The translations under genes were made by a program, and so were the position numbers. Below, piece after piece: positions 4,611 through 54,874 of a DNA stretch of 64,000 nucleotides. How positions within the stretch are numbered: position 1 is the stretch's first letter; every line of letters starts with the position of its first letter. Source of the DNA: Candidatus Woesearchaeota archaeon (GTDB lineage: Archaea > Nanobdellota > Nanobdellia > Woesearchaeales > GCA-2687795). The stretch is from the NCBI GenBank assembly GCA_002687795.1, contig NZBG01000003.1:24557-88556 (forward strand), given 5' to 3'. The notes under the pieces were generated by a model. It saw only the letters and a list, made by a program, of their open reading frames with translations, did no database searches and had not been told where the DNA came from.

Positions 4611-6419
4611 ATGACCAAACCATACATAACTGATACATCTGTTGTAATAGAAAAGCAGGTCACAAAGTTAGTAAAGAAAAAGGAAATCAAAGGAACCCTT
4701 CTTATCCCCAAGGCTGTGATAGCAGAGCTTGAGAACCAGGCAAACAAAGGCCAGGAAACCGGCCTGATAGGATTAGAAGAACTGCAATTCTTACAAAAAT
4801 TAGCAAAAGAAGATGCCATTAAGCTGGAGTTTGTAGGTGACAGGCCCAACATTTTCCAGATAAAGAATGCCAAAACCGGCGGAGAGATAGACGCCTTAAT
4901 AATCAGCCTTGCTTATGACAACGATGCCATCCTGATAACAGCAGACAAGGTCCAGGCAGAGTCTGCCAAAGCCTTTGGCCTTGAAGTTAATTTTATCGAA
5001 ACCAAGCAGCCCAAGGAAAAGCTGGAGATAGAAAGTTTCTTTGACGAGCAGACAATGTCCATCCATATCAAAGAAGACTGCTTAGTTCTGGGAAAAAAAG
5101 GAAAGCCCGGCGACTGGAACCTTGTGCAGGCTAACAAAGAAATCCTCCCGGCCCAGAAAGTGCAGAACATGGCAAAAGAGGTTGTTGAAAAATCAAGGAT
5201 AGACCCAAAAGCATTCATAGAAATCTCAAGGGAAGGCTCTACGGTTGTCCAATACAAAAATTACAGGATTGTGATAACAAAACCTCCGGTCTCTGATGGT
5301 TGGGAAATAACTGTTGTCAAGCCCTTGAAAAGGCTTAATATTGAAGACTATAAGCTCCCTGAACAAATCTCAGAGAGGATCAAAGGAAAAGCAAGAGGAG
5401 TTATCATCGCCGGGGAAACCGGCTCAGGAAAAAGCACATTAGCGCAGGCAGTGGCAGAGTTTTACATGAACGATGGCAATGTTGTAAAAACAGTAGAAAG
5501 CCCCCGTGACCTGCAGCTCCCAGACCAGATAACCCAATACTCAAAAAACTTTACCTCAAGCGAAGAGATCCATGACATACTATTCCTATCAAGGCCGGAC
5601 AACATAATCTTTGACGAAGTAAGAGACACCCCGGACTTCAAGCTATACACCGACTTAAGATTAGCAGGCTCCAATTGTTTAGGAGTGCTCCACTCAGCCT
5701 CTCCCATAGACGCTATCCAGAGGTTTATAGGAAGGATGGATCTTGGCATGATACCTTCTGTCCTTGACACAATACTATTCGTTGAAAAAGGCAACATAAG
5801 CAAAGTCTTAAGCCTTCAGATGGTTGTAAAAGTACCCACAGGCATGACAGAAGCTGACCTTGCAAGGCCTGTTGTTGTGGTAACAGACTATCTAACAAAA
5901 AAGCTGGAATATGAGCTTTACTCTTACGGCGAAGAAACCGTTGTGATACCAGTCAAAGCCCAGACATCCACACCCAGCCAAAAGCTTGCAGCTTCCGCTA
6001 TCCAAAACAGGTTCAGGAAATACTCAGACGAAGCTGAAGTTGATGTTATCAGCGGCAACAAATGCATTGTATATGTACCTGAAAACATGATAGCAAGGAT
6101 CATAGGCAAAGAAGGAAAAACCATAGAAACCATAGAAAAAGAACTGGGCATCAACATAGATATCCAGGAACTAAAGCCGAAGCAAGGCAAAGGAAAAAAT
6201 GAGGTTCAGTTTGAATCAAAGCTATCCAAGAGTGGAGTTAAGCTCTTCCTTGGCGCAAAGATGCAGAACAAAGACGTAGACATCTATATAGGAGATGACT
6301 TCTTACTAACAGCCAAAGCAGGCAAAACCGGCGTTATCAAAGTCCACAAAGGAAACAAGATCGGCAAGATATTAATGGACGCTCTGCAGATGGGTGAGAG
6401 GGTAAGGCTTGAAGGTTAG
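4611..6419 (+). CDS. PIN domain - PilT-like ATPase - KH domain protein
   Basis: N-terminal PIN-like region, Walker A GETGSGKST, and a C-terminal KH-like IIGKEGKTIETIEKELG. This architecture is known from archaeal COG1855-type ATPases. Confidence 0.7.
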   Translation: MTKPYITDTSVVIEKQVTKLVKKKEIKGTLLIPKAVIAELENQANKGQETGLIGLEELQFLQKLAKEDAIKLEFVGDRPNIFQIKNAKTGGEIDALIISLAYDNDAILITADKVQAESAKAFGLEVNFIETKQPKEKLEIESFFDEQTMSIHIKEDCLVLGKKGKPGDWNLVQANKEILPAQKVQNMAKEVVEKSRIDPKAFIEISREGSTVVQYKNYRIVITKPPVSDGWEITVVKPLKRLNIEDYKLPEQISERIKGKARGVIIAGETGSGKSTLAQAVAEFYMNDGNVVKTVESPRDLQLPDQITQYSKNFTSSEEIHDILFLSRPDNIIFDEVRDTPDFKLYTDLRLAGSNCLGVLHSASPIDAIQRFIGRMDLGMIPSVLDTILFVEKGNISKVLSLQMVVKVPTGMTEADLARPVVVVTDYLTKKLEYELYSYGEETVVIPVKAQTSTPSQKLAASAIQNRFRKYSDEAEVDVISGNKCIVYVPENMIARIIGKEGKTIETIEKELGINIDIQELKPKQGKGKNEVQFESKLSKSGVKLFLGAKMQNKDVDIYIGDDFLLTAKAGKTGVIKVHKGNKIGKILMDALQMGERVRLEG

Positions 6420-6462
6420 AAATCGAAACCCTTAAATATAATCCAGGAATTCTTATAGTTTA

Positions 6463-6537
6463 ATGAGAGAAAATATCGCAAAGCTAAACCTGAATAATTC
6501 TTTGTTACTGTTAGCTTTGCTTCTGTTACTGTTATAA
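6463..6537 (+). CDS. 24-codon leucine-rich leader peptide (MRENIAKLNLNNSLLLLALLLLLL)
   Basis: ATG 6463 to TAA 6535-6537. 10 of the last 11 sense codons are Leu (TTG, TTA, CTG, CTT). TATA-like TTAAATATA at 6432-6440 is spaced for a leaderless start. The ORF lies 92 nt upstream of leuA. It is too short for the ORF track. Confidence 0.6.
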   Translation: MRENIAKLNLNNSLLLLALLLLLL

Positions 6538-6564
6538 GCATTCCAATTCTTCTTGGAAATGCTT
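6536..6564 (+). promoter_or_regulatory. hairpin overlapping the leader stop codon (candidate attenuator/terminator stem)
   Basis: AAGCATTCCAA (6536-6546) pairs with TTGGAAATGCTT (6553-6564): 11 bp with a 1-nt bulge and a 6-nt loop. It is followed by U-rich CATTGTTATCACTTGTTTATTCTCT. Confidence 0.5.
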
Positions 6565-6629
6565 CATTGTTATCACTTGTTTATTCTCTAAAACTTTAAA
6601 AAATCTTTAAGGAGGAATAAAAAAATAAA

Positions 6630-8198
6630 ATGAAACAAAATGTGAACGATGGAAACAGGGTTTATGTATTCGATACTACATTAAGAGATGGTGAGCAAAC
6701 AGGTAGTACAAGAATGAATGCAGACGAGAAAATTCAGATTGCAAGACAACTTGAGATTCTTGGAGTTGATGTTATTGAAGCGGGGTTCCCTATTTCATCC
6801 CCGGAAGATTATAAGGCTGTGGAATTAATAGCAGCGGAAATTAAAGATCCAATAATCTGTGGTCTAACACGAGCTATACCTGAAGATATTGAGGTATGCG
6901 GCAGGGCTTTGTCAAAAGCCAAGAAACCAAGAATTCATACAGGAATCGGAGTGTCTGACATACACATAACGGGAAAATTTGGAGACGAGAAATATGGAAC
7001 CACTTTAGATGAAAAAAAAGAGACAATTATAGAGATGGCAGTTTCTGCTGTGGGACTTGCCAGGGAATATACAGACGATGTAGAATTTTATGCAGAAGAT
7101 GCGGGAAGAGCAGATATTAGTTATCTTTTAACGGTAATTGAGCATGCTATAGATGCCGGAGCAACAACAGTAAATATCCCTGATACTACTGGCTATAGTA
7201 TTCCTAAACAATTCGGTGCTTTGATAATGACTGTAAGAGAGTCTGTCCCAAATATAGGCAGAGCAATAATCAGTGTGCATTGCCATAACGACTTAGGGAT
7301 GGCTGTTGCCAATACCCTATCCGGAATAGAAAACGGAGCTCAACAGGCAGATGGAACAATAAATGGAATAGGAGAAAGGGCAGGAAATGCTCCTATAGAA
7401 GAAATAGTTATGGCTTTGAAGACAAGAAAGGACTATTTTAACAAAGAAACTGGAATAAACACCAAAGAGATATACAGAACATGTCGTCTTGTCTCGGGGA
7501 TCACTGTCCCAATATCACCATATAAAGCTGTTAGTGGAGATAATGCGCACAAACATTCTTCAGGAATCCATGTAGATGGTTTTTTAAAAAAAAGAGAAAC
7601 TTATCAAATAATGGACAAGAGTGATGTCGGTTTTCCAGAAGACAGAGAATCTATTACATTAACATCACGTACTGGGAGACATGGATTAGGTCATAGACTT
7701 GAAGAACTTGGTTATGAAGTTAGTCGAGAAGAACTAGAAGAAGTTTATCAAAGGTTCCTAGGAATTGCTGACAGCAAGAAAATAGTAACCGATGGAGATT
7801 TAGAAGCAATTATGGAAGACAGGATTGCTGAACAAGTTCCTGAAGTCTATAAGTTAGATTATGTTCATGCAAGCGGCGGTAGTGAGCATATAATACCCAC
7901 AGCTACTGTGAGGTTAATTAAAGATGGTGAAAAGGAACCGCAAGAGTCTGCTGATTGTGGTGATGGTCCTATAGATGCTGTATATAATACTATAGACGGA
8001 ATAACAGGCATCAAAATCGAACTAGTTGGGTATAACATAAGTGCAGTAACAAAGGGGAAAGATGCTGTTGGGGAAGTTATCGTAAGAATAAGGAATAACG
8101 GCAATGTTGCAAGAGGCAGAGGAAGCAGCACAGATATTATAGAAGCCAGTGCCTTTGCTTATGTTAATGCCTTAAACAGGTTGCTTTACAGTATTTAG
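6630..8198 (+). CDS. leuA: 2-isopropylmalate synthase (bacterial-type LeuA with C-terminal regulatory domain)
   Basis: VYVFDTTLRDGEQ, HCHNDLGMAVANT, GIGERAGNAP and HSSGIHVDG motifs align along the whole length with E. coli LeuA as I recall it. GGAGG at 6611-6615. Confidence 0.85.
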   Translation: MKQNVNDGNRVYVFDTTLRDGEQTGSTRMNADEKIQIARQLEILGVDVIEAGFPISSPEDYKAVELIAAEIKDPIICGLTRAIPEDIEVCGRALSKAKKPRIHTGIGVSDIHITGKFGDEKYGTTLDEKKETIIEMAVSAVGLAREYTDDVEFYAEDAGRADISYLLTVIEHAIDAGATTVNIPDTTGYSIPKQFGALIMTVRESVPNIGRAIISVHCHNDLGMAVANTLSGIENGAQQADGTINGIGERAGNAPIEEIVMALKTRKDYFNKETGINTKEIYRTCRLVSGITVPISPYKAVSGDNAHKHSSGIHVDGFLKKRETYQIMDKSDVGFPEDRESITLTSRTGRHGLGHRLEELGYEVSREELEEVYQRFLGIADSKKIVTDGDLEAIMEDRIAEQVPEVYKLDYVHASGGSEHIIPTATVRLIKDGEKEPQESADCGDGPIDAVYNTIDGITGIKIELVGYNISAVTKGKDAVGEVIVRIRNNGNVARGRGSSTDIIEASAFAYVNALNRLLYSI

Positions 8199-12139: not shown

Positions 12140-13051
12140 ATGATCAACTACTTCAAAAAAACCGTAAAAGATGCTGAAATCAAAAGAATCGGCAGATTCG
12201 AAAGAGGCTGCTGGATTGAAGTAGTTGACCCCTCAGAAAAAGAAATAGAATACCTTCATAAACACTTTGGGCTGGACAAGCAGAACCTTATCTCTGGCAC
12301 AGACAAGCACGAAGTGCCAAGGGTAGAGGTTGACAACAAAGATATCTATATTATCCTAAAAATAATCTCCCCTGGCGACAAAAAGGACCTGCACACATTC
12401 ATGATAACCATAACAAGCGATTTTATTCTCACTCTATCAAAATACAGGCCGCAATTCATAGAAAGGATATTTGATAGGAAGATTGAATTCATAACAACCC
12501 AGAAGCTGAAATGCCTTCTGAAATTCTTCAGCATGATAAACAAAGACTTTGAGCGCTCAACGTATAGTATTGTAAGATCAGTCAACACAAAAAAAGATTC
12601 AATCATTAACTTAAGCGAGAAGGATATAAACGCATTGCTGGAACAGGAAAGCATACTAAACAACTTTGTATCTTCATATTATTACATAAACCTTCTATAC
12701 AAAAGAATCATAAAAAACGTGAAATTCTTTGAAGAAGACAAAGATATCATAGAAGACTTAATAATCGAGGCTCAACAGGGTCTTGACCTATGCAGGTCTT
12801 CACTAAGGACAATATCCAACATCAGGAACCACTTTGTTGTATTACTATCCAACAAGCTAAACAAAGTGATTACATTGCTGACAATCTTCACAGTCTTCAT
12901 CAGCGTGCCTGCAGCAATATCAGGATTATATGGAATGAACCTGTTACTGCCCCTGCAGAAAAGCCCTTTTGCCTTTTACTACATCACTCTTTTGGTTGTA
13001 GCAATATGGGTTGGGTTTGTTATATACTTTAAGAAAAGGAGAATTCTTTAG
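12140..13051 (+). CDS. corA: CorA-family Mg2+/Co2+ transporter
   Basis: Signature YGMN (LYGMNLLLP) between the two C-terminal TM helices, with a typical cytoplasmic N-domain. Confidence 0.85.
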   Translation: MINYFKKTVKDAEIKRIGRFERGCWIEVVDPSEKEIEYLHKHFGLDKQNLISGTDKHEVPRVEVDNKDIYIILKIISPGDKKDLHTFMITITSDFILTLSKYRPQFIERIFDRKIEFITTQKLKCLLKFFSMINKDFERSTYSIVRSVNTKKDSIINLSEKDINALLEQESILNNFVSSYYYINLLYKRIIKNVKFFEEDKDIIEDLIIEAQQGLDLCRSSLRTISNIRNHFVVLLSNKLNKVITLLTIFTVFISVPAAISGLYGMNLLLPLQKSPFAFYYITLLVVAIWVGFVIYFKKRRIL

Positions 13052-13077
13052 TAAACACAGTCTCTGTTCCTTAAACA

Positions 13078-14049
13078 ATGTACAAGCTCAAACAATCACC
13101 TGAAGATTTCATTGTAAAAGAAATAAGCAACATAGAGGTAACAGGAAAAGGAGACTACAGCTATTTCTTATTAAAGAAAAAGAATTATAACACACTAAGA
13201 GCCATAGAAAACATTGCAAAGTCTCTAAAGATCCCCAGCAAGTTCATAGGCTTTGCAGGCAACAAAGATAAAATCGCAATAACAGAACAGGTTATCTCTA
13301 TCAAAGCAGCAGGCAAAGAAAGAACAGAAAGGCTTCAGTTAAAAGATCTTAACCTAACATTCCTTGGCAAAGGAAACAAGCCTGTTTCATTAGGCGACTT
13401 AACAGGCAATGAATTCATAATAACAGTAAGAAACCTCACCAAGAAAGAAACAGAAAACCTCCAAAATAAAATAAAGAACAAAAAACTCCTCATACCAAAC
13501 TACTTCGGTGAGCAAAGGTTCTCAAAAAACAACAAATCAATCGGAAAACACCTAATCAAAAAAGACTTCAGTAAAGCAATTGAATTAATCCTCAAAAATA
13601 ACTCTGACTACAATCCTGAAATAAACGAACACCTGTCAAAAGCTCAGAATGATTTCATAGGAGCATTAAGAAACATCCCAAAAAAGCTTCTAAAGCTCTA
13701 TGTTCACTCTTATCAATCTTATCTTTGGAATCAAACAGTTGAAGAATACATAAACAAGAACGGCTTAAAAAACATAACCATCCCAATCATCGGCTTTGGA
13801 ACAGAAATCTATGACAAACAAATCAACGAAATCATCTCCAAAATAATAAAAAAAGAAAACATTGATTACAGGGATTTCATAATAAGAGAACTGCCTGAAC
13901 TAAGCGCTGAAGGTCAGGAAAGAAACATGCTCATAGAACTAACTGACTTAAAGATAATCAGCAAAGAAAAAGACAAAATAACATTAAGCTTTTCTCTGCC
14001 AAAAGGATGTTATGCTACTATTGTTATAAAATTTCTAATAATATTGTAA
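13078..14049 (+). CDS. truD: tRNA pseudouridine synthase TruD/Pus7 family
   Basis: SPEDFIVKE near the N-terminus, AGNKDK catalytic Asp motif, and NYFGEQRF. Confidence 0.8.
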   Translation: MYKLKQSPEDFIVKEISNIEVTGKGDYSYFLLKKKNYNTLRAIENIAKSLKIPSKFIGFAGNKDKIAITEQVISIKAAGKERTERLQLKDLNLTFLGKGNKPVSLGDLTGNEFIITVRNLTKKETENLQNKIKNKKLLIPNYFGEQRFSKNNKSIGKHLIKKDFSKAIELILKNNSDYNPEINEHLSKAQNDFIGALRNIPKKLLKLYVHSYQSYLWNQTVEEYINKNGLKNITIPIIGFGTEIYDKQINEIISKIIKKENIDYRDFIIRELPELSAEGQERNMLIELTDLKIISKEKDKITLSFSLPKGCYATIVIKFLIIL

Positions 14050-14171
14050 ATTTTCTCATAATATAATCTCCTTCTTTCCTTGTTTCATTTAAAAACAGCT
14101 CTTATTTTTGCCCTTTTTATTATGAAAAATCTTTTAATTAACTATATAAACCAAAAAGCAACAAAAAAACC

Positions 14172-15518
14172 ATGCAAAGAAAGCTATTTGACACAGACGG
14201 AATAAGAGGAGTTGCTAACCAATACCCTATAGACCCTGAAACCATGGTAAAGATCGGCAAAGCAGCTGCCCATGTATTCAAAAACAGCAAAAAAAGGCAC
14301 ATAATTCTTATAGGAAAAGACACAAGGATCAGCGGCTATGTGATTGAATCCGCATTAACCTCAGGAATATGCTCATTAGGAGTTGATGTTCTTCTTGTAG
14401 GCCCAATGCCTACCCCTGCGATTGCCCATTTGACCAAATCATTTGCAGCAGATGCTGGAATAGTTATCTCAGCCTCACATAACCCTGCAGAAGACAATGG
14501 AATAAAATTCTTCTCAAGCGACGGCTTCAAGCTATCAGACAATAAGGAACTGGAAATAGAGAAATATGTTTTCTCAAAAAAGGTCAACACAGAGCAAATC
14601 AAAGGGGAACTAATAGGCAAGGCATTCAGAATCAATGATGCAAGAGGCCGATATATAGAATTTGCAAAAAACAGCATAAAAAATAATTCATTATCAGGGC
14701 TAAAAGTAATAGTTGACTGCGCAAACGGCGCAACATACCATATTGCAGCCAAAATATTTAAGGAACTAGGAGCAGAAGTTACTGTTCTAAACAACAAGCC
14801 AAACGGATTAAACATCAACCTCAACTGCGGCGCTCTCCATCCAGAGGTTGTAAGAGAAGCAGTATTAAAAGAAAAAGCAGATATTGGAATATCCTTGGAT
14901 GGCGATGGCGATAGGGTAATAATGGCTGATGAAAAAGGCAACATAATCGATGGAGACTCAATAATGGCAATTTGCGGGCTTCATCTTCTGAAAAAGAACA
15001 AGCTTAAAGACAACACAATTGTTGCAACCGGCTACAGCAACCTTGCTCTTGATGAATTAATGAAAAAGAATGGAGGCAAAGTTATAAGAGCCCAAAACGG
15101 CGACAGGTATGTAATAGATGAAATGAGAAAAAACAGCTATGTCCTTGGAGGAGAGCAGTCCGGCCATATTATCTTCATGAACCAGACAACAACAGGAGAC
15201 GGTATCATAGCAGCTCTGCAGGTATTAAACATTATGAAAAAAACAGGAAAACCCTTATCAGAACTGGCAAAATGCCTAAAAAAATATCCTCAGGTCTTGG
15301 TAAACATCAATGTTAAAAAGAAGATTCTCTTTGAAGAGATGGAAGAGGTCAATGAAGAAATAAAAAAAGCTGAAAAAGAGCTAAAAGGAAGATTATTGAT
15401 AAGATACAGCGGCACACAAAACATTGCAAGAATCATGGTAGAAGGCAAAGATAAGAACAAGATTAATAAACTTGCAAATAAGATAGCAGAAAAGATAAAA
15501 AAAGAAATAGGTGTATAA
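14172..15518 (+). CDS. glmM: phosphoglucosamine mutase
   Basis: FDTDGIRG, SASHNP phosphoserine loop, DGDGDR metal loop and GGEQSGH. Confidence 0.85.
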   Translation: MQRKLFDTDGIRGVANQYPIDPETMVKIGKAAAHVFKNSKKRHIILIGKDTRISGYVIESALTSGICSLGVDVLLVGPMPTPAIAHLTKSFAADAGIVISASHNPAEDNGIKFFSSDGFKLSDNKELEIEKYVFSKKVNTEQIKGELIGKAFRINDARGRYIEFAKNSIKNNSLSGLKVIVDCANGATYHIAAKIFKELGAEVTVLNNKPNGLNINLNCGALHPEVVREAVLKEKADIGISLDGDGDRVIMADEKGNIIDGDSIMAICGLHLLKKNKLKDNTIVATGYSNLALDELMKKNGGKVIRAQNGDRYVIDEMRKNSYVLGGEQSGHIIFMNQTTTGDGIIAALQVLNIMKKTGKPLSELAKCLKKYPQVLVNINVKKKILFEEMEEVNEEIKKAEKELKGRLLIRYSGTQNIARIMVEGKDKNKINKLANKIAEKIKKEIGV

Positions 15519-16293
15519 AATGGATTTTATGAAAGTTGCAATCAAAGCTGCAAAAGCAGCAGGTGAAATCATAAAGAAAAGAGATTTAGGGAAAATAAAA
15601 GAAAAAACAATACCTGGCGACCTTGTTACAAAAGCTGATATTGAAGCTAACGATATAATTATAAAGATAATAAAAGAGAACTTCCCTGAGCATAATATAA
15701 TTTCAGAAGAAATACACTTTGATAATATTCCCTCAGGTTATACCTGGGTTATTGACCCAATAGACGGGACACTGCCTTACACTTTAGGCTTTGACTATTC
15801 TGCTGTATCTATCACATTAATGAAAGACCATGTACCTATCGTAACTGTAATCTTTCACCCAATGTTAAATGAGCTCTTTACCGCAGAGAAAGACAAAGGA
15901 GCCTTCATGAACGGAAAAAGAATAAAAGTTAGTAACGAGAACAGGCTCTCGCATAGTACTGGATATTGTTATTTCCTTAAAACCAACAGGAGCAAAGGTA
16001 TTAAGACAATCTTGCTTAAATTAGCTGATAAAGTAAAGTTCTTTTTTGAGACTGGCTGCGGCTGTTGGGATTTCACTAGAATTGCCCAGGGAAGAACAGA
16101 CTGGTTCACTCATGAGTACCATAGTATTTGGGACCTTGTGCCTGGTGTTTTATTAATAACAGAAGCAGGAGGCAAAGCAACAGACCTAGAAGGCAAGCCA
16201 TTAGACCTATCAAAGAAAAAGAATGCCTGTATCCTATCAAATGGAAAAGTCCATGATCAAATTATCAAAGCCATAAAAAAAGGTGATGAATAA
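15511..16293 (+). CDS. inositol monophosphatase / FBPase-family phosphatase
   Basis: ISEE, WVIDPIDGT and a WD-containing C-terminal motif. Overlaps the glmM stop by 8 nt. Confidence 0.75.
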   Translation: MYKMDFMKVAIKAAKAAGEIIKKRDLGKIKEKTIPGDLVTKADIEANDIIIKIIKENFPEHNIISEEIHFDNIPSGYTWVIDPIDGTLPYTLGFDYSAVSITLMKDHVPIVTVIFHPMLNELFTAEKDKGAFMNGKRIKVSNENRLSHSTGYCYFLKTNRSKGIKTILLKLADKVKFFFETGCGCWDFTRIAQGRTDWFTHEYHSIWDLVPGVLLITEAGGKATDLEGKPLDLSKKKNACILSNGKVHDQIIKAIKKGDE

Positions 16294-20601: not shown

Positions 20602-21672
20602 ATGGCAAGCAATATACAGGACTTGGAAGAAAGGGCTAGGAACCTATATGCAAAAGGATTAGATCCAACTACATTATCCAAATTGCAGGAAATTGATGAT
20701 CCTTTAGATAGGCTATATTGTACGCTTTCAGTATTACTCCAATCTCCTGAATCTCAAATAGCTGATGACATAAAAGGACCTTTACAACAAACTGTTTCTG
20801 ATTCATATGAAAAAGCCATTAAGGAAAAAGAGAGTCTAGAGAAAAAAACAATAACCGATAAGTTAACTGGATTATTTAATAGATTACATCTGGAAAATAC
20901 AGTTTGCAATGAATTGTCCAGTGCATATAGGGATGGCAAGAAAAAATTCTCAGTCTTATTATTTGATATTGACTTTTTTAAGAAATTTAATGATACATAT
21001 GGGCACACAGCAGGCGATACTGTTTTAATATCACTTGGGGAAATTGTTGATGGAATAACTAGACAGCATGATATTCCTTGTCGCTATGGTGGTGAAGAGT
21101 TTGTAGTTGTTTTGCCAGAAACAGATTTAGATGGCGCAATAAAATATGGTTATCATCTAAATAAAGAAATTGGAAATACCAATATTACTTTCACTGATGA
21201 AGATGGTAATGAACAATCAAAATCAATAAATATCAGCACTGGTGTTACTGAGATTGATCAGGATGATCCTGTTTGGCTTCTTTATGGTAAAGCAGGAAGG
21301 GATATGATAAGAAATTATATTGGAAGTGGTTCCGATATTGAAGGAGAAGATGCAGCAGATATAATGGAACAATATCTCAGTATTTTCAAAAGAAAAGAAG
21401 AGGATGGTGATCATCCACGTTCCAGAAGAAAGAAACCTACAAAAAAGCTATTGAAAGAACAGCTACAAGATGTAGGTGATTTTGTTAGAAAATGGTTGGT
21501 AGAAAAGAAAAAGGATAATACCTCTGTTCACGAATCAAATCAGCAAATAGCTTTTGATTATATAATTAAAAGGGCTGATAATCTCCTGTATTTTGTAAAG
21601 AAAAGTGGAAGAAATAATATTGGGTATCGTAAGAAAGAAACTAACGAGAATGTTCTTTATAGAAAGGACTAA
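20602..21672 (+). CDS. GGDEF-domain diguanylate cyclase with a ~100-aa insertion
   Basis: LTGLFNR, FDIDFFKKFNDTYGHTAGD, I-site RQHD then IPCRYGGEEF (nearly identical to PleD RAIDLPCRYGGEEF as I recall it), and a terminal ADNLLYFVKKSGRNNIGY. Confidence 0.85.
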   Translation: MASNIQDLEERARNLYAKGLDPTTLSKLQEIDDPLDRLYCTLSVLLQSPESQIADDIKGPLQQTVSDSYEKAIKEKESLEKKTITDKLTGLFNRLHLENTVCNELSSAYRDGKKKFSVLLFDIDFFKKFNDTYGHTAGDTVLISLGEIVDGITRQHDIPCRYGGEEFVVVLPETDLDGAIKYGYHLNKEIGNTNITFTDEDGNEQSKSINISTGVTEIDQDDPVWLLYGKAGRDMIRNYIGSGSDIEGEDAADIMEQYLSIFKRKEEDGDHPRSRRKKPTKKLLKEQLQDVGDFVRKWLVEKKKDNTSVHESNQQIAFDYIIKRADNLLYFVKKSGRNNIGYRKKETNENVLYRKD

Positions 21673-35974: not shown

Positions 35975-36059
35975 TTTTTTATTTCTTTTTATGATTATTA
36001 TAACATATATTATAATTAAACGAAAAGAATAAATACCCTATCCTAAATTCTTATGTTCT

Positions 36060-48825: not shown

Positions 48826-48924
48826 CGAGCCTGATGGGATTCGAACCCACGACCTATTGCTTACTTCTTCTTAACTAAAGTTGAATAGGAGGCAATCGCG
48901 CTATCCAGACTGCGCTACAGGCTC
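48826..48924 (-). tRNA. tRNA-Arg (CCT) with canonical 24-nt anticodon-loop intron
   Basis: Reverse complement: GAGCCTG TA GCGC AGTCTGGATA GCGC G ATTGC CTCCTA[TTCAACTTTAGTTAAGAAGAAGTA]A GCAAT AGGTC GTGGG TTCGAAT CCCAT CAGGCTC G. Confidence 0.9.
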
Positions 48925-51732: not shown

Positions 51733-51846
51733 TGGGGACGCTGGGATTCGAACCCAGATCCAGCGGTATCTTCAGGGTCATTGCCTTTCGACTCATATCT
51801 CCAGTTACTGGAGCCGCTTATTCTAGCCAGGTTATACTACGTCCCC
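51733..51846 (-). tRNA. tRNA-Trp (CCA) with 40-nt anticodon-loop intron
   Basis: Reverse complement: GGGGACG ... AGCGG CTCCAG[TAACTGGAGATATGAGTCGAAAGGCAATGACCCTGAAGAT]A CCGCT GGAT CTGGG TTCGAAT CCCAG CGTCCCC A. The intron CTGGAG pairs with the exon CTCCAG. The D-arm is weak. Confidence 0.85.
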
Positions 51847-51927
51847 TTAGACTTAACATAAAAAAGCTTCTTATTTAAATATCTTGTCAAAAACTTTATA
51901 TATTATAACTGATTTCAGTATAAAATA

Positions 51928-52011
51928 ATGATGGTAAAACAAACCAATTTAATATTGAAAGATTCTGTTTCAGATAGTTTTACCTTTAAATTCTTTTATT
52001 TCTTTTGGTAA
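51928..52011 (+). CDS. 27-codon aromatic-rich leader peptide (MMVKQTNLILKDSVSDSFTFKFFYFFW)
   Basis: ATG 51928 to TAA 52009-52011. 8 of the last 10 codons are aromatic: 6 Phe, 1 Tyr and 1 Trp. TATA-like TTTATATATT at 51895-51904 is spaced for a leaderless start. The ORF lies 85 nt upstream of DAHP synthase. Confidence 0.6.
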   Translation: MMVKQTNLILKDSVSDSFTFKFFYFFW

Positions 52012-52036
52012 GTGCATAGGATTTTCCTGAATGCAC
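52012..52036 (+). promoter_or_regulatory. hairpin abutting the leader stop codon (candidate attenuator/terminator stem)
   Basis: GTGCAT (52012-17) pairs with ATGCAC (52031-36), with an inner AGG/CCT pairing. It is followed by CATTATCTCGACTTTTATTCTCTATAAATTTTTT. Confidence 0.45.
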
Positions 52037-52096
52037 CATTATCTCGACTTTTATTCTCTATAAATTTTTTAACAAAAATCCGGAGGACTAGAAAAA

Positions 52097-53176
52097 ATGA
52101 TAATAAAAATGGAAATGGGAACAGATGAAAAGAATATAAAGAGAGTTGAAGCTAAAATAAACGAGCTTGGGTATGAAGTTGGAGAGATACATGGAACAAC
52201 AAGAACAGTGATAGGAATAAAAGGAGATGTTTCAGAACTTAATGAAGACACTTTCATTCCTCTGCCTGGTGTGGAAGAGGTTATAAGGATAAGTAAACCC
52301 TATAAGCTAGCCAGTCTGGAATACAAAACCCTGCTGAATGGAGGAACTCCTGTATACACAAGAGTTAGTGTTGATGGCATTGAAATTGGAGGAGATAAGC
52401 TTGTAATTATGGCTGGTCCTTGCGCAATTGAAACCAAGCAACAAATAATGGATGCAGCAAAGTCCATTGATAGAATCTTCCAAGAACAGGAACATATAGC
52501 CAGGCCTATACTAAGAGGAGGTGCCGATAAGCCAAGAAGCAGCCCATATTCTTTCCAGGGCTTAGGTGAAGAAGGGCTTGAATACCTGGCTGAAGCAGGG
52601 GAAAGATATAAAATGCCAACTGTAACTGAAGTAGTCAGCACAGAAAAGGTTGAACTTGTTAGCAAATATGTAAAGATTCTCCAGGTTGGCGCCAGAAATA
52701 TGGATAACTTCGAACTGTTAAAAAGTATTGGGCAATCTGGGAAACCGGTTTTACTGAAAAGAGGAATGGCTGCAACTGTGGATGATCTACTACAATCTGC
52801 AGAATATATCCTCGATAATGGAAACAGCAATGTTATCTTATGCCTTAGAGGCACAAAATCCTTTGACAGCGGGAAAAACGGACCTTACAGAAACAACCCT
52901 GATGCTGCATATGCCGTGGCTCTAAGAAAACTTACCCCTCTTCCAACTGGATTTGATCCCAGCCATTCGACCGGAGCAAGGTATGCAGTTAAAGGAGTGG
53001 CTATAGGCGCTGTTTCTATGGGAGCTGATTTCCTTTTAGTAGAAGCTCACCCAAATCCAGAAAAGGCACTATGTGATGGGTCTCAAAGCCTGCATATGGA
53101 AGAACTAAGGGAATTAGTTAATGCAGCTAATGATTTCAGAGGCTTATATAATCACCATTTCAATGGAAAAGATTAA
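52097..53176 (+). CDS. 3-deoxy-7-phosphoheptulonate (DAHP) synthase, type I-beta with N-terminal ferredoxin-like regulatory domain
   Basis: LVIMAGPCAIE, RGGADKPRSSPYSFQGLGEEGL, LQVGARNM, LKRG and DPSH motifs. The ~75-aa N-terminal extension is like that of Thermotoga-type enzymes. Confidence 0.85.
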   Translation: MIIKMEMGTDEKNIKRVEAKINELGYEVGEIHGTTRTVIGIKGDVSELNEDTFIPLPGVEEVIRISKPYKLASLEYKTLLNGGTPVYTRVSVDGIEIGGDKLVIMAGPCAIETKQQIMDAAKSIDRIFQEQEHIARPILRGGADKPRSSPYSFQGLGEEGLEYLAEAGERYKMPTVTEVVSTEKVELVSKYVKILQVGARNMDNFELLKSIGQSGKPVLLKRGMAATVDDLLQSAEYILDNGNSNVILCLRGTKSFDSGKNGPYRNNPDAAYAVALRKLTPLPTGFDPSHSTGARYAVKGVAIGAVSMGADFLLVEAHPNPEKALCDGSQSLHMEELRELVNAANDFRGLYNHHFNGKD

Positions 53177-54772: not shown

Positions 54773-54874
54773 TGGGCCTGACCGGATTTGAACCGGTGAT
54801 CCCCGCCAAGTCAAGGCGATGTCATAGCTTCTAGTTGCAAAGCAAGGCTTTACCAATCACTAGACCACAGGCCC
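54773..54874 (-). tRNA. tRNA-Val (GAC) with ~26-nt D-loop intron
   Basis: Reverse complement: GGGCCTG TG GTCT AGTGATTGGTA[AAAGCCTTGCTTTGCAACTAGAAGCT] TGAC A TCGCC TTGACTT GGCGG GGATC ACCGG TTCAAAT CCGGT CAGGCCC A. U37 is unusual, so the anticodon call is less certain than the gene call. Confidence 0.7.

Follow-up and report, generated by a model that had tools for sequence, protein, structure and literature searches.

In a stretch of 64,000 nucleotides from an uncultured Candidatus Woesearchaeota archaeon (contig NZBG01000003.1, positions 24,557 to 88,556 of the forward strand; hereafter the window, with its first nucleotide as position 1), the gene of a DAHP synthase is preceded by a short open reading frame (mini-ORF) that ends in a run of Phe, Tyr and Trp codons and by a predicted hairpin that begins directly behind the stop codon of this mini-ORF. 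As judged from the arrangement of its expression signals and from its recurrence at other archaeal loci, this element is probably a ribosome-stalling sensor, i.e. an attenuator that works through the ribosome and is fitted to the expression signals of archaea. Control of leuA by the same design, through a Leu-codon leader, is the best explanation for a second element in the same genome. An earlier reading of the same DNA that was made from the nucleotide letters alone (hereafter the sequence-only reading) had proposed that an attenuator-like element of an archaeon, laid out like the leuA leader, encodes a cognate leader peptide here; this proposal is strongly supported by the comparative evidence, and the terminator-like role that it implied for the hairpin and the U-rich run behind it is not.

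The aromatic leader and its archaeal counterparts

The leader and the gene behind it comprise the following features (window coordinates, strand):

51895..51902, +: TATA box of the leader promoter (8-mer TTTATATA), starting 33 nucleotides before the mini-ORF ATG, no Shine-Dalgarno (SD) sequence between
51928..52011, +: leader mini-ORF, 27 codons plus stop codon (52009-52011), peptide MMVKQTNLILKDSVSDSFTFKFFYFFW
51933..51984, +: predicted stem inside the mini-ORF, GGUAAAAC (51933-51940) paired with GUUUUACC (51977-51984), -7.6 kcal/mol
51979..52008, +: putative regulatory codon run F-T-F-K-F-F-Y-F-F-W, eight aromatic codons out of ten, directly abutting the stop codon
52012..52036, +: stop-abutting hairpin P1, arms GTGCATAGG/CCTGAATGCAC, stem GUGCAUAGG / CCUGAAUGCAC, beginning at the first base after the stop codon
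52049..52072, +: U-rich stretch with two U tracts (CUUUUAUUCUCU ... UUUUUU), T6 run at 52067-52072, containing the 11-mer TTTATTCTCTA
52050-52060, +: the 11-mer TTTATTCTCTA, with an exact copy in the leuA leader at 6580-6590
52082..52086, +: SD sequence GGAGG of DAHP synthase (each of the 14 loci compared has an SD ahead of its enzyme gene)
52097..53176, +: DAHP synthase, type I-beta with ferredoxin-like regulatory domain (PF00793, E 7e-61; PF18152, E 7e-17), the presumed regulated gene

The coordinates that the sequence-only reading had given for the mini-ORF, hairpin, T6 run, GGAGG and ATG, and its count of aromatic residues, were all borne out by the sequence; its assignment of the downstream gene to the type I-beta DAHP synthases was confirmed by the PF00793 match, and the N-terminal ferredoxin-like domain PF18152 is present in addition. 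The peptide MMVKQTNLILKDSVSDSFTFKFFYFFW contains six Phe, one Tyr and one terminal Trp residue, F/Y/W being encoded at eight of the ten final codons, and a spacer of 85 nucleotides separates the mini-ORF stop from the DAHP synthase ATG (52097). In the window, 575 mini-ORFs with ATG start and a length of 10-45 codons were counted; only this one has at least eight F/Y/W among its final ten codons (runners-up: six), and no mini-ORF with at least eight F/Y/W appeared in 100 Markov-1 simulated windows. Within the related archaeal loci (approximately 110 kb, 1082 mini-ORFs), six or more aromatic codons were reached in only five cases other than DAHP synthase leaders, the background rate of aromatic-tailed mini-ORFs in the window and these loci being approximately 0.5% per mini-ORF. 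The aromatic mini-ORF is not a chance feature: the statement of the sequence-only reading that coincidence was very unlikely is upheld by its uniqueness in the window, by the simulations and by its recurrence in other archaea.

Indeed, an aromatic-tailed mini-ORF was found on the sense strand upstream of the DAHP synthase gene in 13 of 13 other archaeal loci recovered, which were drawn from a GTDB scan and from contigs encoding homologous proteins and fall into two protein clades; the survey of upstream regions in archaeal relatives, which had been suggested together with the initial proposal, thus revealed conservation of the mini-ORF. The leader peptides are listed by locus:

L068 (clade I, the clade of the window; enzyme 56% identical): MNNKVKRINSFLVFSYFGSFY
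L003 (clade II): MKSVNSSLNKNISFSYSFFYFGW
L004 (clade II): MENIVSSSNVSSFRYFYFWQ
L006 (clade II): MQNISSSSRLNSFSFSYFYFWQ
L152 (clade II): MQNISSSSRSNSFSFSYFYFWQ
L002 (clade II): ...NTPAFFFYFM
L154 (clade II): ...LVFFSYFYYFFN
L155 (clade II): ...RYFFWNFAYFFYFG
L157 (clade II): ...DVFPYFFFYFG
L160 (clade II): ...DFFSFYFFYFK
L164 (clade II): ...DWFIYFFYFN
L167 (clade II): ...LFFNWFYFYFN

Clade II denotes proteins of Woesearchaeota/Nanoarchaeota, with more than 120 members at 70% identity or above; a further locus, L170, is a close strain variant with an identical leader and is hence uninformative for conservation. No close relative of the window DAHP synthase was present among the GTDB species representatives (best match 45% identical), and the matches of a metagenome scan for its relatives were mostly bacterial. 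The mini-ORFs of the other archaeal leaders comprise 20-35 codons with an F/Y/W run at the end and are followed by spacers of 80-300 nucleotides; in every archaeal leader the aromatic run stops 0-1 codon short of the stop codon. The N-terminal parts of the peptides are unrelated between subclades and the aromatic tail alone is kept, which points to selection on the codon content and not on the peptide.

The DAHP synthase gene of clade II is the first gene of a complete operon for the shikimate pathway and Phe/Tyr synthesis. At L152 the DHQ synthase gene is directly followed by a gene (12289-15606) for a 1105-residue protein in which EPSP synthase, shikimate kinase, dehydroquinase and shikimate dehydrogenase are fused in the order of the eukaryotic AROM protein, and partial fusions occur at other clade II loci. 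L152 (9790-10000) and L006 (2698-3000) also carry an extra structured insert of 120-200 nucleotides with long GC-containing hairpins between mini-ORF and SD, for which no Rfam match was obtained; in L006, three tandem copies of a unit of approximately 20 nucleotides (aaaaccaataaatcaaaaat) are located just before the SD.

The expression signals of the leaders are equally uniform. Thirteen aromatic leaders and the Leu leader of the window were compared: in 14 of 14, a perfect or 7/8 match to the TATA 8-mer starts at -33 to -30 of the mini-ORF ATG with no SD between, and in 14 of 14 loci a GGAGG-type SD is found at -11 to -20 of the enzyme ATG. The TATA-like element that had been noted before the window mini-ORF (TTTATATATT, 51895-51904) is present and shows this common spacing, which is also the modal spacing of the ordinary genes of the window, where a TATA box mostly occurs without SD. 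Because the TATA box lies 30-33 nucleotides before the ATG without an SD, the mini-ORF is probably translated from a leaderless or near-leaderless 5' end. The simplest reading of these signals is a bicistronic RNA, in which a leaderless sensor ORF would be followed by a spacer and then by the enzyme cistron with its SD. Most genes of the window (e.g. 12140, 49012, 50306, 58363) likewise show a TATA box approximately 25-33 nucleotides before the ATG and no SD, and SD motifs in the window mostly precede internal genes of operons; the genome appears to use mainly leaderless mRNAs. As regards first genes, GGAGG was found before those of DAHP synthase, leuA and one other gene only.

The sister leader upstream of leuA shows the architecture of the aromatic leader:

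6431-6438, +: TATA box CTTAAATA, promoter of the Leu mini-ORF
6463..6537, +: Leu leader mini-ORF, peptide MRENIAKLNLNNSLLLLALLLLLL, upstream of leuA (6630-8198)
6536-6564, +: stop-abutting hairpin of the Leu leader (z = -3.6 against shuffles)
6610-6615, +: SD sequence AGGAGG, preceding leuA

The likeness of layout claimed by the sequence-only reading therefore holds, and it extends to the 11-mer TTTATTCTCTA, an exact copy of which is located at the same relative position in both leaders. It occurs exactly twice in the window, 38 and 42 nucleotides past the respective stop codon and 21-22 nucleotides ahead of the GGAGG; because it is found at the same place in both leaders and nowhere else in the window, this stretch is probably functional. 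It is predicted to be able to pair with the SD, though no better than shuffled sequences, and is also part of the motif of two U tracts; the U-rich stretch is a candidate anti-SD sequence or a candidate archaeal oligo-U termination signal. No archaeal leuA relatives with Leu leaders were encountered among the nearest LeuA relatives, which are bacterial (62-66% identity). An Ile-rich mini-ORF (35991-36032, +; MIIITYIIIKRKE) upstream of a ZPR1-like gene was also considered; it lies in AT-rich, promoter-like sequence, has no pathway match and is probably a product of chance.

Predicted RNA structure around the leader stop codon

Most leaders have a helix that borders on the mini-ORF stop codon or overlaps with it. 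The window helix P1 is predicted to be extendable to 52007-52043, then including the UGG and UAA codons, and is followed by CAUUAUCUCGAC and not by a U run. Compared with shuffled sequences, the stop-abutting helix is clearly more stable in the leuA leader (z = -3.6) and in L004 and L006 (z = -3.8), whereas that of L003 is borderline. Inside the mini-ORF, the predicted stem of 51933..51984 is the strongest helix of the aromatic leader, and its 3' arm coincides with the start of the aromatic run; an analogous stem of 10 base pairs is predicted inside the ORF of the leuA leader.

The structural evidence is most detailed for a subgroup of seven leaders (clade IIb: L154, L155, L157, L160, L164, L167 and L002), in which the 5' arm of P1 is situated 0-1 nucleotide past the stop codon and the 3' arm approximately 55-60 nucleotides downstream. 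This helix was more stable than dinucleotide shuffles in six of the seven leaders (p <=0.02) and is identical with the RNAalifold consensus, four of whose seven pairs exhibit compensatory changes; in the P1 alignment 89.8% of the cells pair, and the covariation score was matched by only one of 500 shuffles and exceeded all slid controls. A second helix, X:X', crosses P1 in these leaders: X is located just inside P1 and X' just past its 3' arm. As tested by per-sequence duplex formation against shuffles (pair counting in a MAFFT alignment of the whole spacer was unusable owing to register errors), the complementarity of X and X' is significant in five of seven leaders (Fisher p ~6e-6, the sequences not being fully independent). 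When the region covered by a ribosome was masked in the folding calculations, P1 was replaced by X:X' in five of the seven clade IIb leaders with the A site on the stop codon or the last two codons, and P1 formed when the A site was at least three codons farther upstream. These models support a switch, or a pseudoknot, that would depend on ribosome position in clade IIb. A search of Rfam with cmscan (E up to 1) returned only a chance match to ROSE_2 (19 bits versus a gathering threshold of 65), and none for L152.

Proposed mechanism and alternative explanations

According to the conserved spacing, transcription would start approximately 25 nucleotides past the TATA box at 51895-51902 and place the 5' end of the mRNA at or near the mini-ORF ATG at 51928. 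The mini-ORF would then be translated as a leaderless cistron, with DAHP synthase as the second, SD-dependent cistron of the same RNA. By analogy with bacterial leaders, a scarcity of charged tRNA-Phe, -Tyr or -Trp would cause the ribosome to stall within the aromatic run. Since the stop codon directly follows the run and is itself directly followed by P1, a ribosome that occupies the final two to three codons or the stop codon should occlude the 5' arm of P1, and P1 should form if the ribosome is stalled farther upstream or is absent, as the geometry and the ribosome-mask folding both indicate. The end of the run 0-1 codon before the stop, together with the helix at the stop, suggests that the sensor reads whether a ribosome is positioned on, or clear of, the 3' end of the ORF. 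Ribosome position would in this way set the fold of the 85-nucleotide spacer, and the fold would set the output of DAHP synthase. As output step, regulated initiation of translation on the cistron with the SD, or access to this cistron that depends on the RNA fold, is favoured with slightly less than even confidence; a tentative second candidate is that transcription ends prematurely, through oligo-U or aCPSF1, at the U tracts (52049-52072), and the rest of the probability goes to RNA stability or another step. P1 and X:X' may form a pseudoknot-like switch as output, which would act on SD-dependent initiation or on aCPSF1/oligo-U termination.

Several results obtained for the window itself weigh against this interpretation. 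Its P1 is borderline compared with shuffles (z = -1.8, p ~0.05), its candidate for X:X', GGAUUUU (52019-25) paired with AAAAUCC (52075-81), is not significant (p ~0.12), and the calculated accessibility of its SD was constant at 0.02 in every state of the ribosome mask, and likewise with the tail of the codon run either free or occluded; across the loci, no consistent assignment of ON and OFF to the folds was obtained. Two modes of control at the SD were considered and rejected. Sequestration by the upstream TTATTCTCT (hairpin B) leaves the SD 98% paired as predicted, yet this is no better than in dinucleotide shuffles in six of six leaders, and pairing of the codon run with the ribosome-binding site, the mycobacterial model, is significant in only two of 12 leaders (L155, L157) and at shuffle level in the window. 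A bacterial-type terminator was not detected by a terminator scan in 51840-52130 or 6400-6660, a scan which performs poorly on bacterial controls, so that bacterial terminators were judged by direct reading; by direct reading, a U run of at least five is not conserved across the spacers either. The terminator-like role implied by the sequence-only reading for the hairpin and the U-rich run is not supported. In addition, TATA-like sequences precede both the DAHP synthase ATG (-38 to -31) and the leuA ATG (-36 to -27) and could be separate proximal promoters.

The nearest alternative retains the same sensor and couples it to transcription attenuation, with the U tracts at 52049-52072 as an oligo-U or aCPSF1 (FttA) termination signal whose use would depend on P1 versus the alternative fold behind the RNA polymerase, or on the distance between ribosome and polymerase. 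U-rich tracts are sufficient for termination in archaea, nascent RNA that is rich in U is recognised by aCPSF1, and the terminator motif of Methanococcus maripaludis is composed of two consecutive U tracts (PMC7515710). The spacer of the window contains U4AU2CUCU followed by U6, the spacers past P1 are G-poor, and the X' arm of clade IIb, whose pairing state varies with ribosome position, is the most U-rich part of the spacer. However, no U run of five or more is present in the leuA spacer or in many clade II spacers, the simplest arguments from timing give the wrong sign (termination with the ribosome stalled upstream), and no computed result ties the folds to termination; this output is considered possible, though on the unlikely side. 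The mini-ORF might instead be an evolutionary relic that was carried in with a horizontally acquired bacterial DAHP synthase or leuA gene and is no longer regulatory, DAHP synthase being transcribed from a proximal promoter (TATAAATT, 52060-52067). The nearest LeuA relatives (62-66% identity) and many relatives of the DAHP synthase are indeed bacterial and possess classical leaders, and TATA-like sequences precede both enzyme ATGs by 27-38 nucleotides. A relic, however, would not preserve its open reading frame and aromatic tail in 14 otherwise diverged leaders, nor gain an archaeal TATA box at the exact spacing for leaderless translation, nor retain a covarying helix that abuts the stop codon, and the conserved SD would fall upstream of the RNA start of the proximal promoter and hence be useless there; this explanation is judged improbable.

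That the conserved and probably translated ORF encodes a functional small protein, whose aromatic-tailed peptide would act in trans and not as a sensor in cis, is more improbable still. Trans functions are known for some bacterial leader peptides (peTrpL; PMC7298713); but conservation is confined to the composition of the C-terminal tail, the first two thirds of the peptide being wholly different between subclades, and the Leu-run counterpart before leuA means that the match between codon run and pathway recurs. A chance ORF in T-rich promoter or untranslated DNA beside the divergent tRNA gene could be imagined on the ground that the leader shares its AT-rich intergenic region with the tRNA-Trp promoter and that TTT/TTC-rich sequence reads as Phe in one frame. 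Given a background of approximately 0.5% per mini-ORF and yet recurrence at 13 of 13 further archaeal loci, this origin is effectively refuted and retains a barely appreciable probability.

Genomic setting, origin and relation to known systems

The window contig is clearly archaeal. Among its products are RNA polymerase subunit N, Sec61-beta, NAC, a CCA-adding enzyme of archaeal type, Hjc and TFE, and three of its tRNA genes contain introns. Its host is an uncultured DPANN archaeon: the DAHP synthase is 100% identical to MAG07972.1 from a Candidatus Woesearchaeota metagenome-assembled genome (marine, Tara Oceans), and the contig was recovered by assembly from several samples. Divergent from the aromatic leader and in the same intergenic region, a tRNA-Trp gene borders on the leader whose own final codon is Trp; it was missed by the default ARAGORN run and found by Rfam and by aragorn -i. 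The tRNA genes are:

51733-51846, -: tRNA-Trp(CCA) with an intron of 40 nucleotides
48826-48924, -: tRNA-Arg(CCT), intron-containing, overlooked by the default tRNA scan
54773-54874, -: tRNA-Ala(TGC), intron-containing, likewise overlooked

The intron of tRNA-Trp contains CUGA and AUGAG motifs, which could be box C/D-like. Elsewhere on this archaeal contig, the product of the gene at 20602-21672 (+) shows a strong match to the GGDEF domain of diguanylate cyclases (PF00990, E 6.6e-37); signalling by cyclic di-GMP is generally regarded as bacterial.

Bacterial relatives of the FXD-type DAHP synthase frequently possess aromatic leaders, e.g. MQHIHLTTTQSFYFSYFR in Aliicoccus and MATKIISNNWYWFYYFYAPVCPMLRRT in a metagenomic sequence, and the bacterial LeuA relatives (62-66% identical) possess Leu leaders with hairpin/T-run terminators. 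In a crude neighbour-joining tree, archaeal clade II is placed beside leader-rich bacterial clades, and clade I forms a separate long branch. The leader-bearing bacterial relatives of both enzymes and the position in this tree suggest that the genes came from bacteria and that their leaders were kept and rebuilt with archaeal signals. More generally, it seems rather likely that DPANN archaea (Woesearchaeota, Nanoarchaeota) regulate amino-acid synthesis by ribosome-mediated attenuation, with devices taken over together with bacterial genes and rebuilt with a TATA box, a leaderless ORF, an occludable helix abutting the stop codon and an output without bacterial intrinsic terminator.

A full-text literature search found no report of leader-peptide attenuation in archaea, its coverage being incomplete and its result an absence of evidence. 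If the present interpretation is true, the element would be the first leader-peptide sensor acting in cis to be reported from Archaea, with at least two specificities (aromatic amino acids and Leu). If such elements work, the archaeal ribosome and RNA polymerase, or initiation on polycistronic leaderless mRNAs, could be connected to the same logic of sensing along another structural path; the elements would also be a tangible example of how a cis-regulatory device crossed domains with metabolic genes and was then re-engineered, and the codon run, stop codon and P1 would offer a simple, sequence-defined handle on transcription-translation coupling and termination in archaea. The layout of the leader could also serve as a rule for annotating metabolic regulation in the genomes of uncultured DPANN archaea.

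In bacteria, attenuation by leader peptides is a textbook mechanism that needs coupled transcription and translation as well as hairpin terminators. The archaeal leader resembles trpL, pheL, leuL and hisL of Escherichia coli in its short 5'-leader ORF with codons for the end product, in the helices directly past the leader stop and, presumably, in sensing by ribosomes that stall on codons of uncharged tRNAs. Unlike these attenuators, it has a TATA promoter instead of a sigma-70 promoter, a probably leaderless instead of an SD-led ORF, no terminator of GC-hairpin and U run, and a codon run with never more than one codon between its end and the stop; a terminator/antiterminator pair was not identified in the window, and no Rfam leader family was matched.

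A cognate leader peptide upstream of a DAHP synthase gene has a precedent in Corynebacterium glutamicum, where the aroR leader with its Phe/Tyr codons precedes aroF and where, as known experimentally, expression increases when ribosomes stall under Phe limitation (Neshat et al. 2014, as summarised in PMC11802643). The system differs by its bacterial host, by transcription attenuation, and by another DAHP synthase class and leader sequence, and the archaeal run is much longer and includes Trp. The polycysteine small-ORF attenuators of mycobacteria (the "Cys ribulon"), in which the codon tract pairs with the downstream ribosome-binding site (Canestrari et al., 10.1101/834739), share with the arrangement proposed for the archaeal leaders a leaderless small ORF as first cistron with a cognate codon run, an SD-led gene behind it and control by stalled ribosomes that involves no terminator. 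They belong to another domain of life, and in the archaeal leaders pairing of the tract with the ribosome-binding site reached significance only in the two leaders named above and not in the window, the conserved element being a separate helix that abuts the stop codon.

The leaders of the bacterial FXD-type DAHP synthases, in turn, possess sigma-70-like promoters, usually 3-12 codons beyond the run and, by direct reading, clear hairpin and T-run terminators, in contrast to the archaeal ones. They nevertheless precede an enzyme of the same family and carry the same aromatic run, and in Aliicoccus the helix likewise begins directly after the stop codon.

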